From UHGV virus genome UHGV-0337628: a stretch of 18,112 nucleotides of DNA. One strand, given 5' to 3'. A program made the position numbers and the translations under genes. Position 1 is the first letter of the stretch, and every line of letters starts with the position of its first letter. This document shows, piece by piece, positions 9,805 to 15,223 of the stretch. This DNA comes from a virus. The notes below the pieces were generated by a model. That model saw nothing but the letters and a program-made list of their open reading frames with translations. It had not been told where the DNA came from and searched no databases.

Positions 9805-11220
9805 TCAACCTACACCACAAGGAATTGAGTAACTGGAATAGTCGGGTTGCGCAGCCGACTCCGGGCAATGCATACACATCATCAGCGCATCAGCCAGGTT
9901 AGGAGATGGAATACCGAGCTTCTGCTTCATTTCGACCTTAGTCATAAGCTCCAGCTTCCCGTTGTTATTGAATTTGCGCTGAATCTGCGTCAGTTCTGCA
10001 AACAGCTTCTCCAGCATATTCTCGCCTATCGCTTCTTTGTCGAAACTCAGCATGTCGTCGGGGTCTGCATACTCACCGTGGACAACCGCCCGATATGTCA
10101 GATACAGCCTGTCAGCCAGCGCGTAATAGAATTGCGCTCGCTTATTGCGGAATACATCGCCAATAGTGCGGACGTTGTCGCCCTGCACGACTTCATCAGC
10201 CCATGCTCCGGCCTGGTAAGGCGCATCTTCATCGAATGGCGATTCGCTACCCTTGAACATCGTGGCGGTGATTTTCTTACCGGAGAACGCTTCCGTTGTC
10301 TGTCTGCGTAGCCCGGCACCAACACCATCACCATCCCACAGGTAGTGGTCAGCGCCGTCTTCAATCGCCAGCGAAGTAGCCCAGTCAGCACCATCGTTGA
10401 TGTCCATCAGCAGACCTTCGGCAATGCGCTTAACTACCGAACCGTGGCGCGATGCGTAACCTTTAGCATCTGGCCCTGTATCTGATGGGTCATGCGCAGA
10501 GACAACAGCACCTTTCGCTTTCCATCCGAGTTTCTTGTGCGCATCGGTTGCGGCTTCAAGCCATTCACGTTTGATGATTGCCATATCACTTGCGCTTACT
10601 GGCTCACCAAGCCAGATGTGACGATACAGTGTCGGGTTTCTGCGTTTACACTCTTCCATCTCCAGACGGAGAACTTCAGGAAAGTGCGGGTTGTCGGTGT
10701 AGTTCACCGTCAGCAGACAAATATCATCGGGAGGATTTACGACGAATCGCTGATAGGTATCGTCGAGGATGTTCTTCGGGTTAAAGCTCACCCATATTTC
10801 AGAGAACGGCTTACGGATGGTTGGTATCAGGATATCCCATGATTCCTTCGTTACCGCCTCCGCTTCTTCCACCCAGCAGATATCAATACCTTCGAGCGAT
10901 TTAATCTTCGTCGGGTTGTTTTTTATTCCGTAGAACATGAATTCAGCATTCGTTCCGAGATGACGAATCATTGAACGCTGAATTTCAAACTCAGCCGAAT
11001 ATCCTTCACGCTCGATGGTGTCTTCAAGCAACCGGATTACAGAATCGCTGATACTGTTTTGCAGTTCACGAGCGCAGAGTATGCGCACAGGCTGCCGACG
11101 CGCCGCTTCAACAAGCAGTCTCGCAATTGCCCATGACTTACCGCTACCTCGACCGCCTTTGGCGACTTTGTAGCGATGCGCCTCAATGAACGGTTCAAAG
11201 ATAGGATTAATCGAGGTCAT
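9805..11220 (-). CDS. terminase large subunit (ATPase/nuclease), Sf6 gp2-like
   Basis: 471-aa ORF; Walker A motif KGGRGSGKS near the N-terminus; 4-bp overlap with the small-subunit gene; strongly resembles my recollection of the Sf6/CUS-3 large terminase. Confidence 0.9.
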   Translation of the reverse strand: MTSINPIFEPFIEAHRYKVAKGGRGSGKSWAIARLLVEAARRQPVRILCARELQNSISDSVIRLLEDTIEREGYSAEFEIQRSMIRHLGTNAEFMFYGIKNNPTKIKSLEGIDICWVEEAEAVTKESWDILIPTIRKPFSEIWVSFNPKNILDDTYQRFVVNPPDDICLLTVNYTDNPHFPEVLRLEMEECKRRNPTLYRHIWLGEPVSASDMAIIKREWLEAATDAHKKLGWKAKGAVVSAHDPSDTGPDAKGYASRHGSVVKRIAEGLLMDINDGADWATSLAIEDGADHYLWDGDGVGAGLRRQTTEAFSGKKITATMFKGSESPFDEDAPYQAGAWADEVVQGDNVRTIGDVFRNKRAQFYYALADRLYLTYRAVVHGEYADPDDMLSFDKEAIGENMLEKLFAELTQIQRKFNNNGKLELMTKVEMKQKLGIPSPNLADALMMCMHCPESAAQPDYSSYSIPCGVG

Positions 11221-11744
11221 TTTCCGAATAGAGTGCTCATCGGTGATGTTTCAATCTGGATTGCGCCGCCGTCTTTGCCTGTTAATTCGTGAGAAGCTTG
11301 TTCTTTAAACGCCTGAACAGAAACATGCTTACCAAGAAGTTCGAGGTTTTTAACCTTATCAGGCCATTTGATTTTCTTCAGAAGTGCGGCGCTATCTGCG
11401 GATACCATCTCCACGACATCCATTCCTGATAGCGTTGTGCGCCATACCTTAGGCCAGTCTTTAATTGGCTTTAACTCGCCGTTTTGCAGGAGAATGTCGA
11501 GCACATCCATCTGGTCGATTTCAATAAGGCGATTAAGTACATATTCTGCATTAATACCAACAAGATCATTGCGTTGCGCTTTCAGTTCGGAGATTCTTAA
11601 CTTGATATCAGGTTTTGACAGGTTTTCGGATGCGGTACGGTTAGCTGTCTTTGCGCTGTACCCCGCCCGAATAGCCGCTTGCGTGGCATTTAAATCGATG
11701 AGGTACTCGCGACAGAACATTTCTTGTTTGTCGGTGAGTGCCAT
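11217..11744 (-). CDS. terminase small subunit
   Basis: 175-aa ORF immediately upstream of and overlapping the large subunit gene; N-terminal helix-turn-helix-like region (MALTDKQEMFCREYLIDLNATQAAIRAGYSAKTA) typical of small terminases. Confidence 0.8.
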   Translation of the reverse strand: MALTDKQEMFCREYLIDLNATQAAIRAGYSAKTANRTASENLSKPDIKLRISELKAQRNDLVGINAEYVLNRLIEIDQMDVLDILLQNGELKPIKDWPKVWRTTLSGMDVVEMVSADSAALLKKIKWPDKVKNLELLGKHVSVQAFKEQASHELTGKDGGAIQIETSPMSTLFGK

Positions 11745-11770
11745 TTTTTACTTCCCATAAGGAGATTGTT

Positions 11771-11953
11771 ATGAACGATGACTTTAAAACAGGTGACATT
11801 GTTAAACTGAAATCAGGCGGACCTGACATGACTATCAGGTCATTTTCATCTACCCACGGTAACTCTTTTCTTTGTCAATGGTTTGCTGGCAAGAAGCTTG
11901 AGCAAGGATATTTCAAACCGGAATCTCTTGAGCGCGTTACCCCAAAGCCATAG
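11771..11953 (+). CDS. DUF2158 (YodC-like) family small protein, 60 aa
   Basis: ATG at 11771 with a strong AAGGAG Shine-Dalgarno 7 nt upstream; product MNDDFKTGDIVKLKSGGPDMTIRS... carries the GDxVxLKSGGPxMT signature I associate with DUF2158/YodC. The track's 11738 start is an in-frame upstream extension lacking a ribosome-binding site. Confidence 0.7.
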   Translation: MNDDFKTGDIVKLKSGGPDMTIRSFSSTHGNSFLCQWFAGKKLEQGYFKPESLERVTPKP

Positions 11954-11997
11954 TCCCAAACACACCAACCTTAACTCTTGATGATATTTCATCATGG

Positions 11998-12237
11998 ATG
12001 ATGTCCGTTTTATCAACAGAGGGTTGCCTTTATCAGCAGGATGTTGTGGATTATCTCGTTAAACAACATAACGAGCAGCACCTCAAAGAAAATGCGGATG
12101 GCAACCAAGCGATATCAACAAAAGTGATTAATAAATTCAGGGTTGATAGCGGTGAAAGTGTTGTTTGGGTTAAGCCAGATAAGTACTGGCGTTTCCGTGT
12201 GCCTGAAGACGAAAACGGTCGTGAAGCTCGCGGTTAA
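11998..12237 (+). CDS. hypothetical protein, 79 aa (second gene of the plus-strand cassette)
   Basis: ORF with protein-like composition (...VVWVKPDKYWRFRVPEDENGREARG); same strand as and 44 nt downstream of the DUF2158 gene; followed by a hairpin. No clear Shine-Dalgarno, so lower confidence. Confidence 0.45.
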   Translation: MMSVLSTEGCLYQQDVVDYLVKQHNEQHLKENADGNQAISTKVINKFRVDSGESVVWVKPDKYWRFRVPEDENGREARG

Positions 12238-12250
12238 ACTAATCAACGAT

Positions 12251-12282
12251 AAAAGGCAGCATGTTGAGTGCTGCCATATTCA
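12251..12282. terminator. candidate bidirectional intrinsic terminator between convergent genes
   Basis: Perfect 7-bp stem GGCAGCA / TGCTGCC (12255-12261 and 12269-12275) with a 7-nt loop; flanked by AAAA on the plus side (giving UUUUAU on the minus transcript) and a T-rich stretch downstream on plus. Confidence 0.45.
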
Positions 12283-12312
12283 TCTCACTTATTTGTTATT
12301 TCAGGTTGAGCA

Positions 12313-12555
12313 TCATGCTCCGGTAGTGAACAGGTCTAACGCTTCCTTCGATTTACGCACCGCTTCGATAGTGCGGGTCGTGATATCCGAATTAGCGCCG
12401 CCTGACTGGAAGTGAATTTTGAATAGCTCAAGCTTCAGCTCGTCAGTGCCAATGAATTGAAATGCTTCTTCTGCGGCTGCGTTCTGGTTCATGACCAGTT
12501 TGTAAATCTCTAACTGGAATTTCTGTTCTTCAGTCATGGGAATAATCTCTGCCAT
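12313..12555 (-). CDS. hypothetical protein, 80 aa
   Basis: ORF with GGAG Shine-Dalgarno 6 nt upstream of the ATG at 12555; acidic, helix-prone product (MAEIIPMTEEQKFQLEIYKLVMNQNAAAEEAFQF...); family not recognised. Confidence 0.5.
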   Translation of the reverse strand: MAEIIPMTEEQKFQLEIYKLVMNQNAAAEEAFQFIGTDELKLELFKIHFQSGGANSDITTRTIEAVRKSKEALDLFTTGA

Positions 12556-12849
12556 TGTTGGCTCCGTTTATCCGTTAAAAGGGATATCAGTTAAGTTATC
12601 CCGTGTAGGGTATAAGCCATTGTCGAGACCACTCATTGAATGGCCTCTGCAATAACCGATGTCTTTCCATCAGTCCGCCACCACAAAGAATCTTTTTTGC
12701 CATAAGGCTGGAGGTTCATCTTTCAGTGGCTGCCAGTGTTATTTCCCCACTTTCTGGCTTGGGTTGCTTCGTGGTACTGCCATAACTGGTTGCCCAGAAT
12801 AAGCTCCGGTTTCATTATCAAGCCCACCCGCAGATAGGCTTTGTAATGG

Positions 12850-13137
12850 CTACTTCTTCAGAAATGATTCGATGAACTCACGCCGGGGATGACGATAGTT
12901 CAGAATATCTTCTGGCATCCTCATAAAGCGGTTGTTGCCGTCTTTGGCAGTAACGAAACAGCTGTGAACTCCGCAGACATCCGTTTTGATCGTGTCGCCA
13001 TACTCAAAAAGCAACTGCGCCATCTTCTCTTGCCATTCTTGCGGCATAGCCTCCATGAATACTCTCGGCATCACGCAGAACGACGCATGCGTCAGGCCAA
13101 ACCACAATTGCAGGTCTTTACGATATTCTTCATCCAT
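12850..13137 (-). CDS. hypothetical protein, 95 aa
   Basis: Internal ATG at 13137 preceded by AAAGG 8 nt upstream and by a terminator hairpin; product MDEEYRKDLQLWFGLTHASFCVMPRVFMEAMPQEW... The track's 13257 start is a TTG and would read through the hairpin. Family not recognised. Confidence 0.5.
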   Translation of the reverse strand: MDEEYRKDLQLWFGLTHASFCVMPRVFMEAMPQEWQEKMAQLLFEYGDTIKTDVCGVHSCFVTAKDGNNRFMRMPEDILNYRHPRREFIESFLKK

Positions 13138-13152
13138 CGTCTTTACCTTTGT

Positions 13153-13181
13153 TGCAATAAAAAGCCCCGCGAATGCGAGGC
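13153..13181 (-). terminator. intrinsic terminator-like hairpin downstream of Rz, immediately upstream of the 95-aa ORF
   Basis: Minus strand GCCUCGC-AUUC-GCGGGGC (7-bp G/C-rich stem, one G-U pair, 4-nt loop) followed by UUUUUAUUG. Confidence 0.55.
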
Positions 13182-13356
13182 TAAATCCTGGTATTTGTAA
13201 TGATCTGGCTCTTATCTCAACGCAACCCCTTACTGCGCGCCAGATGCTCAATATCAAGCATCAGCAATGAGATGTTTAATCTGGATTCACTCCAGAAGCG
13301 ATCACCACCCTGTCTACAGAGCCAGATGTGAAGGATGATGAGTAAAATTATCGCTA

Positions 13357-13824
13357 TCATCGAAGGCATTGCGTCCTGATGTATTCCTGAAGCGTTCTCA
13401 GTGCTGTTTGGTCGCGGATAATTCTGTCCCGGATACCGAGAACGTTTCGTCCAGCAACTGGAGAGAGTTCGACGGTGGCATCATTGCCCATGCCGGAGGC
13501 GCTGGAGGTTTCGTCTGAGGATGGCACAGGGCATTTTCCTTTGACGAGCACCCTGCCACCATTATCAAGCTTCCGCCGAAGAGCATCATTTTCAGCTTTC
13601 GCATCAGCTAACTCCTTCGTGTATTTAGCATCAAGTGCATCAGCATCACGCTGGCGCTGCTGCATGTCAGTAATGGTGGCGGTCGCCTGCTTCAGCTCAC
13701 TGACTTTTTTATCGCGCTGTTCTTTGTAGGTAATGGCGTTATCACGGTAATGATTAACAGCCCATGATAGGCAGACGATGATGCAGATAACCAGAGCGGA
13801 GATAATCGCGGTTACTCTGCTCAT
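13357..13824 (-). CDS. Rz: spanin inner-membrane subunit (i-spanin) Rz
   Basis: 155 aa; N-terminal transmembrane segment and first ~85 residues match my recollection of lambda Rz ([34 protein letters not shown]...[13 protein letters not shown]), then the C-terminal half diverges; start overlaps the R stop. Confidence 0.85.
13398..13604 (-). CDS. Rz1: spanin outer-membrane lipoprotein subunit (o-spanin) Rz1, embedded in the +1 frame of Rz
   Basis: ATG at 13604 with AAGGAG Shine-Dalgarno; product [23 protein letters not shown]... has a signal peptide and lipobox (VAGC) and a Pro-rich stretch, like lambda Rz1; entirely inside Rz. Confidence 0.7.
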
Positions 13825-14297
13825 ACCTCAATCTCTCTGACCGTTCCGCCAGCTTCTTTGAATTTTGCAATCAGGCTGTCAGCCTTATGCTCGAACTGAC
13901 CATAACCAGCGCCCGGCAGTGAAGCCCAGATATTGCTGCAACGGTCGATTGCCTGACGGATATCACCGCGATCAATCATCGGTAAAGCGCCGCGCTCTTT
14001 AATCTGCTGCAGTGCAACAGCGTCCTGGCTTTTGGGAGAGAAGTCTTTCAGGCCAAGCTGCTTACGATAGGCATCCCACCAACGGGAAAGAAGCTGGTAA
14101 CGTCCGGCTGCTGTTGATTTGAGTTTTGGGTTTAGCGTGACAAGTTTGCGAGGGTGATCGGAGTAATCAGTGAATAGCTCTCCGCCTACAATGACGTCAT
14201 AACCATGATTTCTGGTTTTCTGACGTTCGTTATCAGTTCCCTCTGACCACGCCAGCATATCGAGGAACGCCTTACGTTGATTATTGATTTCCACCAT
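13821..14297 (-). CDS. R: endolysin, lambda R-type lytic transglycosylase
   Basis: 158 aa; [23 protein letters not shown]...[23 protein letters not shown]... is essentially lambda R as I remember it; start overlaps the holin gene. Confidence 0.9.
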
Positions 14298-14604
14298 CTT
14301 CTACTCCGGCTTTTTTAGCAGCGAAGCGTTTGATAAGCGAACCAATCGAGTCAGTACCGATGTAGCCGATGAACACGCTCGTTATATAAGCGAGATTGCT
14401 ACTTAGTCCGGCGAAGTCGAGAAGGTCACGAATGAACCAGGCGATAATGGCGCACATCGTTGCGTCGATTACTGTTTTTGTAAACGCACCGCCATTATAT
14501 CTGCCGCGAAGGTACGCCATTGCAAACGCAAGGATTGCTCCGATGCCTTGTTCCTTTGCCGCGAGAATGGCGGCTAACAGGTCATGTTTTTCTGGCATCT
14601 TCAT
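14281..14604 (-). CDS. S: class I holin / antiholin, lambda S-type (S107/S105 dual start)
   Basis: 107 aa; [39 protein letters not shown]... matches lambda S; Met1-Lys2-Met3 dual-start motif (ATG at 14604 and 14598). Confidence 0.9.
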
Positions 14605-15135
14605 GTCTTACCCCCAATAAGGGGATTTGCTCTATTTAATTAGGAATAAGGTCGATTACTGATAGAACAAATCCAGGCTACTGTGTTTAGTAATCAGATT
14701 TGTTCGTGACCGATATGCACGGGCAAAACGGCATGAGGTTGTTAGCGCAACCTCCTGCCACCCGCTTTCACGAAGGTCATGTGTAGAAGGCCGCAGCATA
14801 ACTATCACTGATGAATTCAGGACAGCCAGTGGCTACGGCTCAGTTTGGGTTGTGGCGGTCGGTGCTGAACTCCGACTTAATGACGATAGGCGTGTACCGA
14901 CGCCTCGTTTTACTTCCTCCGCTTTCACGGCTTCACCCTAGACCAGCTTTACGAAATCCTCGTAAACCTAACCGCGGCAGATATGACCGGCACGGTGTGC
15001 CATATCACGGACCGGCGGGTGTCTCGTTCACCTGATTAACGCATCAGCCTGCGTATTCACCACAACGATAAGAGTACTGCGCGGCACCTTTCACCAATTC
15101 CGCGAGGTCTGCGGGTTCAATGCTCTTACCTGTTG
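14605..15135 (-). other. untranslated late-operon leader, lambda-type
   Basis: About 530 nt without a credible ORF between the candidate terminator and S; the minus-strand sequence (e.g. ...CACGAACAAATCTGATTACTAAACACAGTAGCCTGGATTTGTTCTATCAGTAATCGACC...) matches what I remember of the lambda region between tR-prime and S. Confidence 0.6.
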
Positions 15136-15183
15136 TGCAAACAAAAAAGCCACCGTTGCAACTTAAGAGTCACTAACGGCAGC
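15136..15183 (-). terminator. intrinsic terminator at the tR-prime position of the late operon
   Basis: Minus strand GCUGCCGUU ... AACGGUGGC (9-bp stem including two G-U pairs) followed by CUUUUUUGUUUG; located just downstream of the Q gene and upstream of the lambda-like leader. Confidence 0.55.
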
Positions 15184-15186
15184 TTA

Positions 15187-15223
15187 CCCTCTAATTATGG
15201 CTAAATGGCTAATTGCATGTCAA
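15187..15223 (-). promoter_or_regulatory. candidate sigma-70 late promoter (pR-prime analogue) overlapping the Q stop codon
   Basis: Minus strand TTGACA (15223..15218), 18-bp spacer, CATAAT (15199..15194). The -35 hexamer lies inside the last Q codons and the -10 directly after the TAG stop. Predicted start ~15187, only a few nt before the terminator hairpin. Confidence 0.4.

Follow-up and report, generated by a model that had tools for sequence, protein, structure and literature searches.

A conserved, folded non-coding spacer at a cargo slot of P22-like late operons, with a core resembling the orphan RNA motif Proteo-phage-1

The locus considered here is a 294-bp spacer (positions 12556-12849) that is poor in open reading frames (ORFs), together with the two small genes that border it, ORF95 and ORF80, in an 18,112-nt stretch of the virus genome UHGV-0337628, hereafter called the window. 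Its closest described counterparts are of different kinds. Proteo-phage-1 (RF03044) is an orphan RNA motif of phages; it reportedly goes back to Weinberg et al. (2017). Lambdoid antitermination signals lie in the upstream regions of operons, as canonical copies of Proteo-phage-1 do. Morons, in the description attributed to Juhala and Hendrix, are said to be genes with their own promoter and terminator inserted between essential genes. One moron, pid, was found in an “unannotated” gap of P22 between orf201 and orf80 (PMC3573128; PMC8835761). The put RNAs of HK022 are cis-acting antiterminators of about 70 nt, with two stem-loops, that are located in the leaders of phage operons (PMC9378689).

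The window covers the late part of a P22-like (Lederbergvirus-type) prophage, with its late genes on the - strand, and the interval in question would be an accessory region between the lysis and the packaging genes of this operon. The account that appears reasonably probable is that the region holds two genuine genes and a conserved folded spacer, the core of which would belong to the Proteo-phage-1 family, flank a cargo slot and act in cis. For the spacer, the most fitting label is an enterobacterial variant, hitherto undescribed, of an orphan RNA motif of phages; it is placed at a cargo hotspot of model phages. The two proteins, a member of a known DUF and a conserved hypothetical protein, add little. 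The non-coding block of 130-250 nt is unannotated in the late operons of the well-studied phages P22, HK620, L and HK022 and is present in about a fifth of complete Escherichia coli genomes. It combines signs of selection and strand-specific folding with a covarying pairing of the pseudoknot type, common to an Rfam motif that was known only from Pseudomonas-type phages.

Conservation and folding of the spacer

The initial annotation described the spacer as free of ORFs of 60 aa or more on either strand, which was confirmed: the longest frames encode 49 and 47 aa on the + strand and 35, 34 and 28 aa on the - strand. A gap of 294 bp without an ORF is not improbable by chance alone; it is the second largest in a tightly packed late operon. 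The spacer recurs in 207 phage records at 88–97% identity, including P22, HK620, L, epsilon34, CUS-3 and the siphovirus HK022, and is unannotated in most phage records among the matches listed. Its central 197 bp were found in 1121 of 5426 complete E. coli genomes (21%), with the annotation “none” for nearly all copies among the matches listed. When 105 unique copies are compared, almost no position of the block 12658-12784 falls below 90% identity. Among 45 collinear copies, the mean pairwise difference of 12556-12727 is 0.012–0.023, which is 5–9 times less than at the third codon positions of ORF80 (0.108) and also less than at its first and second positions (0.031).

The transcript of the late strand is predicted to be strongly folded. 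The minimum free energy (MFE) of the - strand RNA is -96.8 kcal/mol. Its z score is -4.75, compared with -1.6 for the + strand, and the same bias appeared in all eight divergent copies (sense z -3.5 to -6.1, antisense -1.4 to -3.4). A series of hairpins, all on the - strand, can be followed from ORF95 to ORF80. Hairpin A (12813-12848, from the MFE fold) comes directly after the ORF95 stop codon and continues into GAUAAUGAAACC. It also follows other upstream genes (hkbL in HK620 and in the Stx2 phage 1717) and forms a module common to HK620, HK022, L and Stx2-1717. The differences between phages in this hairpin are U/C changes opposite G, which are tolerated only in late-sense RNA. After the core, which is discussed below, the long hairpin P3 (12677-12730, MFE and alifold) starts in the GCC of the conserved tail of the core and is nearly invariant among copies, with a mean pairwise difference of 0.017. 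Hairpin D (GAUG GAAAGA CAUC, 12658-12671, alifold) is the last structure before the cargo insertion point, directly after 12658. The best-supported helix of the spacer is hairpin E (12621-12651), whose 10-bp stem shows three compensatory G-C to A-U pairs together with an alternation of G-U, A-U and G-C in six sequences out of 62, possibly all of one lineage. Hairpin F, with its UUUU (12577-12602, MFE), is a weak terminator-like element upstream of ORF80; an alignment with L, SE21 and sal4 shows that L-type phages do not have it. Judged from its sequence, the spacer is a conserved non-coding module, the late-sense transcript of which is predicted to fold into a series of hairpins. The earlier expectation that the spacer holds something is thus upheld, and given the sense-strand folding and the covarying pairs, this is most probably a structured RNA element.

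The conservation might have another source. The spacer could be a conserved DNA linker, shared where modules meet, that serves recombination between lambdoid phages and has no RNA or regulatory role; its hairpins would then be incidental or left over from terminators, and its conservation would reflect recent horizontal spread. Sharp mosaic breakpoints at the edges (12657, 12597/12569, 12604 and ~12785-12807) fit such a linker, as does the free assortment of 5' arm types with 3' arm variants in P1, the hairpin with an internal loop that precedes the boxes in the RF03044 model. Moreover, the spacer differs from its two nearest relatives by 3.7–5.8%, similar to the 5–9% of third codon positions, with small counts. 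Because the contrast vanishes against these two relatives, the estimate of constraint is suggestive, not firm, and the signal rests on the larger, recombination-prone sample. Nevertheless, a DNA linker is rather improbable. It does not account for a spacer that varies less than any codon position of ORF80 in the 45 collinear copies, for a folding excess confined to one strand in eight of eight variants, or for the G-U-compatible and compensatory changes in hairpins A and E. Nor does it fit the box sequences of the core, which are common, with their covariation, to Pseudomonas-type phages that share no flanking DNA.

Relation of the core to Proteo-phage-1

The core lies at 12728-12802 on the - strand and was recognised by a sub-threshold match to RF03044, by our own covariance model (R1) and by the covariation of two short boxes. 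It would consist of a short hairpin, a conserved 3' tail (AACACUGGCAGCC) to which the hairpin loop (AAGCCAG..AGUG) pairs, and then the long hairpin. The short hairpin P2 joins CCC (12763-12761) to GGG (12747-12745); box1, GCCAG, is found at 12758-12754, box2, CUGGC, at 12736-12732, and the conserved tail GGCAGCC ends at 12728. Both the loop and the tail of Proteo-phage-1 are present, the RF03044 counterparts being AAGCCGG..AGUG and AACACCGGCAGCC. Each box departs from RF03044 at one position, and the two changes compensate each other, A:U here standing for G:C in RF03044.

Model R1 was built from 32 canonical Proteo-phage-1 copies only and contains no enterobacterial sequence. It ranks 12728-12802 first in the 18-kb window, with 19.5 bits and a rough E value of 0.003, the next hit scoring 10.4 bits. 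The homologous site is also its top match in HK022, and the loci of HK620 and P22 are matched as well; over all these sites, E is 0.003–0.03. A search of viral contigs for the pattern of shared boxes returned an enterobacterial class with a spacing of 33 nt and a class with a spacing of 39–41 nt; the latter scores 72–86 bits and is bona fide RF03044. The boxes are complementary, GCCNG with CN'GGC, where N:N' is A:U in the enterobacterial class and G:C in the canonical one. When the neighbouring pair was relaxed, three further variants were obtained, and they are also complementary (GCUGG/CCAGC, GCGGG/CCCGC and GCUGG/CUAGC). Across the five sequence classes, the box helix is paired in 100% of cells and shows five double changes; none of 500 shuffles was as good, and slid controls were far lower.

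The likeness extends to the architecture. Like Proteo-phage-1, the element occurs in temperate phages of the lambdoid type, oriented with the operon, and has a loop AAGCCNG..AGUG, a tail AACACN'GGCAGCC that pairs with it, a short putative hairpin around the loop and a further hairpin after the tail. The long hairpin P3 of the window occupies the same place as the third hairpin of canonical copies. That third hairpin comes right after GGCAGCC and shows visible compensatory changes on reading of the alignment (e.g., L139:5262-5390). The loop-to-tail pairing is absent from the cmscan consensus structure for RF03044 and would make an H-type pseudoknot with P2. The RF03044 model appears to be incomplete, as it contains neither this pairing nor the third hairpin. 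The enterobacterial element differs from Proteo-phage-1 in that its P2 has only 3 bp (CCC/GGG, against 5 bp in RF03044), its linker is 7 nt shorter and P1 is not conserved. Its hosts are Enterobacterales, whereas those of the canonical copies are of the Pseudomonas type. Three more classes with the same architecture, a different P2 and compensating boxes were observed at L182:4472-4538, L183:1213-1294 and L184:2598-2668. Read by eye, their P2 helices differ in sequence and have 6, 6 and 3 bp, respectively, so that P2 would covary from class to class, and R1 gives them 25, 51 and 15 bits in the same order.

The genomic surroundings were surveyed as well. The canonical RF03044 copies (loci L023-L180) form two sequence subtypes and occupy two genomic contexts. 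In about half of 60 canonical loci, the motif lies downstream of NinG and a Q-like gene and upstream of holin/Rz genes, a layout that is also seen around the motif in the Pseudomonas phages Solano and phiAH14a. In the other half or so, Rad52/RecT/Gp157 genes come next, and a repressor gene is sometimes found before the motif. All 60 loci have the motif co-directional with the genes downstream. One canonical copy begins ~17 nt after a hairpin with a U-run that was read by eye and that the consensus scan did not flag.

Several observations weigh against kinship between the core and Proteo-phage-1 and against a conserved RNA role. The RF03044 match (12728-12804, - strand) spans the whole model, with 20.6 bits and an E value of 0.15–0.55; the score is half of the gathering threshold of 42, and the Rfam-wide E value is not significant on its own. 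A search of the window at Rfam gathering thresholds returned nothing, and RF03044 went unreported in larger searches too. Although the window sequence can form P1 with standard pairs only, the arms of P1 assort freely (the 5' arm is mosaic), and its pairs are broken without compensation in 20–30% of 67 enterobacterial variants; a different local hairpin may replace P1 in this class. The sequences that show the box covariation were collected by patterns that fix the flanks, 11 copies carry an A.C mismatch in the box helix, and Y:R variants of the box pair were sought with a pattern scan that had no matches. Most helices of the core cannot be tested by covariation because it is almost invariant within the enterobacterial class. 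Finally, the element of the window lies in the middle of an operon, after the lysis genes, unlike the positions of canonical copies in our survey, position being no part of the Rfam definition.

The subthreshold score, the unconserved P1, the differing position and the missing Y:R variants would all be expected if the likeness had arisen by chance and the spacer were its own kind of structured or regulatory element, such as a set of hairpins for RNase processing or stabilisation. Such a coincidence seems unlikely. R1, which has seen no enterobacterial sequence, places the window and HK022 sites on top and recovers the HK620 and P22 loci. The core and Proteo-phage-1 have 22 specified bases in common, complementarity at the two variable positions of the box helix is kept in every one of the five classes, and the hairpin after box2 stands at the same place in the enterobacterial and the canonical class. 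A true relationship between the spacer core and Proteo-phage-1 is judged likely. If it holds, an orphan RNA motif becomes testable in genetically tractable model phages, and the fixed insertion points of cargo genes, including pid and the Gp49-like genes, would be explained.

The cargo slot and the possible role of the spacer

A fixed insertion point for cargo marks the 3' edge of the element. The spacer module would form the fixed upstream flank of a cargo slot, with alternative small genes entering after 12658 and the DUF2560 gene (ORF80) closing the slot. Inserts of ~128 to ~1330 bp directly after 12658 (...GGAAAGACATC; ...GAUGGAAAGACAUC) were found in 27 distinct sequences. They encode about eight products, including proteins of 61, 72 and 80 aa, and one 143-nt insert has a strong ribosome-binding site. 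Other cargo comprises a protein of 118–126 aa, assigned to the “Gp49 family” by the NCBI pipeline PGAP and labelled “anti-CRISPR” in the annotation of phage Huey, and a 246-aa protein matching an “S1 family peptidase” of E. coli annotation. In several cases, a strong intrinsic terminator closes the insert, after which the sequence returns to a variant of the hairpin region downstream. Most of the inserts at loci such as L012, L017, L046, L074, L079 and L127 have a terminator of one type at their end, with ...TTATTGCCATCACAAAAGCCATTC after it. The window shows the commonest, “empty” arrangement of the slot.

The pid locus of P22 and BTP1 is situated in the same interval. The breakpoints and the primer orientation place pid between the equivalents of 12597 and 12569, antisense to the late operon, and the P22 gap holds a homologue of window positions 12597-12781. 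Unlike these loci, the window is devoid of pid and represents the empty site. The pid promoter was considered as a promoter of the spacer and rejected, as it lies in P22-specific DNA and on the other strand; since it is inside the pid insert itself, it is absent from the window. Like morons, the genes of this region are variable, small and placed between conserved late genes, and several of them end in intrinsic terminators. A terminator-like hairpin follows ORF80 (12275-12255), while after ORF95 there is only hairpin A, which has no U-run. Unlike morons, ORF95 and ORF80 have no promoter that a consensus scan could find, and the expression of their BTP1 homologues follows that of the lytic genes.

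The module would act in cis, as RNA within the late transcript. More speculatively, it would govern how the cassette and the structural genes downstream are transcribed (elongation and termination) or how their RNA is processed and stabilised. The canonical Proteo-phage-1 motif is comparable to the put RNAs of HK022 in size, in its two-hairpin layout and in its upstream position in operons, which is a functional analogy only. It can be imagined that the enterobacterial element and canonical Proteo-phage-1 constitute one family of cis-acting RNAs that modify the polymerase or the transcript, as put and nut do; this reading is unlikely. Pseudomonas-type phages would place such RNAs at the heads of early and late operons. 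In P22-, HK620-, Sf6- and HK022-type phages, the element would precede the terminator-laden slot, so that late transcription could reach the packaging and head genes whatever the cargo. A polymerase modified by Q should already ignore terminators, which means that an antitermination role is not obviously needed. Kinship with put RNAs by sequence or structure was rejected, as no similarity was detectable in HK022: in its whole genome, neither RF03044 nor R1 matched the put regions, and R1 matched the late-region copy only.

The initial annotation had suggested that the spacer might hold a promoter, and a promoter, activator-dependent or of the extended -10 type, could express DUF2560 and the cargo from the prophage as the regulatory part of a moron. 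The cargo after 12658 with its strong intrinsic terminators is moron-like in this respect, as is the terminator-like hairpin after ORF80. A GATAAT hexamer follows hairpin A, and -10-like hexamers can be read before several canonical Proteo-phage-1 copies. However, this possibility is quite unlikely. No sigma-70-like site and no recognisable -35 element were found on the - strand between 11600 and 13500, in a consensus scan that weak or activator-dependent promoters could escape. In BTP1 lysogens, the expression of rha and Orf80 is as low as that of the other lytic genes, and no non-coding RNA is listed between rha and pid, the homologous place, which fits co-transcription with the late operon. 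The suggested promoter is thus not supported. The BTP1 transcript STnc6030 was examined as well and is unrelated to the spacer, being antisense to the tailspike gene.

The last alternative, a decayed or short coding region (a remnant of an orf118-type DUF2560 gene or a gene for a 28- or 35-aa peptide), can draw on an ATG equivalent to 12703 that opens a 118-aa ORF into the DUF2560 domain in phages L, ST64T and SF6 and on an orf118-type similarity noted by the epsilon34 annotators, but it is highly improbable, as the long ORF of those phages contains a GGAG and an ATG identical to the start of ORF80, the 35-aa ORF of the window is out of frame with ORF80, the variable sites of the two small ORFs are spread over the codon positions as 7:7:11 and 8:11:9 with no third-position excess, and conservation begins ~65 nt upstream of either ATG. 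With stops or lost starts in several copies and no codon periodicity, the small ORFs were rejected as genes, and the decayed gene proposed earlier loses its support. Longer, orf118-type DUF2560 ORFs are a feature of L-type phages. Because the GGAG-ATG of the ORF80 type lies inside them and their extensions differ with context, the 80-aa form is considered the true gene, and the N-terminus of orf118 in phage L would most simply be an annotation from an upstream ATG.

The two small genes and their surroundings

ORF80 (12313-12555) and ORF95 (12850-13137), both on the - strand, were confirmed at the positions first given for them. PGAP calls the same 95-aa and 80-aa coding sequences in E. coli 23CRST013, with the same unannotated gap of 294 bp. 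The initial annotation could not assign either protein to a family, which was wrong for ORF80. This ATG-started protein of 80 aa belongs to DUF2560 (Pfam PF10834), matching the profile over its full length (positions 1–72 of 72) with 147.7 bits and E 1.1e-43, against a curated cut-off of 25 bits. It corresponds to P22 orf80 and HK620 hkbM, with 100% identity to the proteins of HK620, HF4s and Huey and 98.8% to that of P22. Among 93 homologues, all 92 stronger ones carry PF10834. A so-called ORF80 of the Stx phage Sp5 was rejected as a homologue, since it is an unrelated protein of 2,793 aa (PMC5155283). The gene has a GGAG Shine-Dalgarno sequence at 12562-12565. The protein is acidic by sequence, and AlphaFold2 predicts four helices with a predicted local distance difference test score (pLDDT) of 81. 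A Foldseek search of this model against the PDB gave no match below E 3, and profile searches of the PDB with ORF80 and ORF95 yielded only matches with E > 0.2.

The position of ORF80 is that of P22 orf80 and HK620 hkbM, just upstream of the small-terminase region, and the same holds for the other P22-like phages examined. The locus departs from HK620 in what comes next, a + strand DUF6953/DUF2158 cassette and not hkbN. Proteins P0047, P0052 and P0057 are DUF2560 members with an N-terminal extension that resembles part of the small terminase (TerS) of the window (cf. ...SELKAQRNDLVGINAEYVLNRLIEIDQMDVLDIL), which suggests rearrangements that fused a TerS fragment upstream of DUF2560. HK022 (L005:694-777) and mEpX1 (L008:688-825) keep the spacer and have DUF2560 cut to its first 28 codons. 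In HK022-type siphoviruses, this truncated form is a 45-aa ORF (PHROG 23132) followed by an HNH endonuclease gene.

ORF95 is the ATG-started part of a mechanically called TTG ORF of 135 aa (12850-13257). The start that gives 95 aa is taken to be correct because 45 homologues are nearly all 94–105 aa long and the NCBI pipeline calls the same coding sequence. It belongs to PHROG 3527, a family of unknown function, with E 5.3e-56 over positions 139–230 only of the 233-position profile; as its direct homologues have ~95–105 aa, it is not a fragment despite this partial coverage. No match was found in Pfam, NCBIfam or PADLOC. The 45 homologues, 43–98% identical, come from Salmonella, E. coli, Enterobacter, Klebsiella, Yersinia, Erwinia and others, and the conserved residues include KDL, WF, PR and NYRHP. 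An AlphaFold2 prediction from a 32-sequence alignment gave no usable fold (pLDDT 52).

Both proteins are conserved and evolve under purifying selection. For ORF80, this follows from the 45 collinear copies, in which variation at the third codon position exceeds that at the first two by a factor of 3.4 (0.108 against 0.031). The ratio of non-synonymous to synonymous divergence (dN/dS) of ORF95 is about 0.1 (0.10–0.12 against close relatives). In the comparison with Yersinia, the synonymous sites are saturated and dN is only 0.18. In Yersinia prophages, which have different holins and spanins, the ORF95 homologue is again the first gene after the spanin, and in a more distant contig, the homologue is closely followed by an HNH gene and a gene for a 584-aa protein with no family assignment. 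By sequence and position, ORF95 is thus a genuine accessory protein of the late region, rarer than DUF2560 and first after the spanins in several genera. ORF95 is upstream in none of the 106 viral contigs that carry the spacer element, and the Yersinia loci with an ORF95 homologue contain no copy of that element; ORF95 and the spacer are therefore independent modules. As for the anti-defence functions suggested for the two proteins, PADLOC returned no meaningful match, and this resource holds defence systems, not anti-defence proteins. In phage Huey, the genes labelled “anti-CRISPR” are other, non-homologous cargo genes nearby. ORF80 and ORF95 are ordinary phage accessory genes, of which the former is already a named DUF.

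The order on the late strand is holin (14281-14604), endolysin (13821-14297), Rz spanin (13357-13824, with an embedded Rz1 candidate), a 50-aa ORF, ORF95, the spacer, ORF80, two genes on the + strand, TerS (11217-11744), the large terminase TerL and the portal gene. The stretch 11700-13400 is matched by 203 phage records at 80–99% identity, and none of them covers 80% of it, as is typical of a mosaic region. The content of the interval between Rz and the terminase differs among relatives (KilA-N and hkbL-N in HK620, Rha and orf80 in P22, orf118/orf129/dec in L), and other cargo of related phages includes GIY-YIG and Gp49-like genes and pid. The claim that this interval is a cargo hotspot is thus borne out.

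Further features of the window deserve mention. The largest gap without a long ORF is the 596 bp at 14605-15200, upstream of the holin gene, which presumably contain the late promoter and leader; a scan of this gap with R1 gave nothing convincing. A 68-aa ORF lies within Rz in another frame (13398-13604, - strand), and its lipoprotein-like start is consistent with an Rz1 o-spanin. The 50-aa ORF (13217-13369, - strand) shares 13 nt with the end of Rz, is matched along its whole length by PHROG 11822 (E 3e-36), has a hydrophobic N-terminus and is annotated by PGAP in E. coli. Just upstream of ORF95, the consensus scan flagged a terminator-like hairpin with a U-run on the - strand (13163-13182; 8 pairs, 6 of them G-C, then TTTTTATT). 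The hairpin after ORF80 (12255-12275, - strand), from the same scan, faces the end of the + strand cassette. This cassette (11738-12237) consists of a DUF2158 gene (YodC family, E 4e-18) and a DUF6953 gene (E 3e-18), convergent with the late operon; the pair replaces HK620 hkbN between DUF2560 and the small terminase and is also present in several E. coli prophages.

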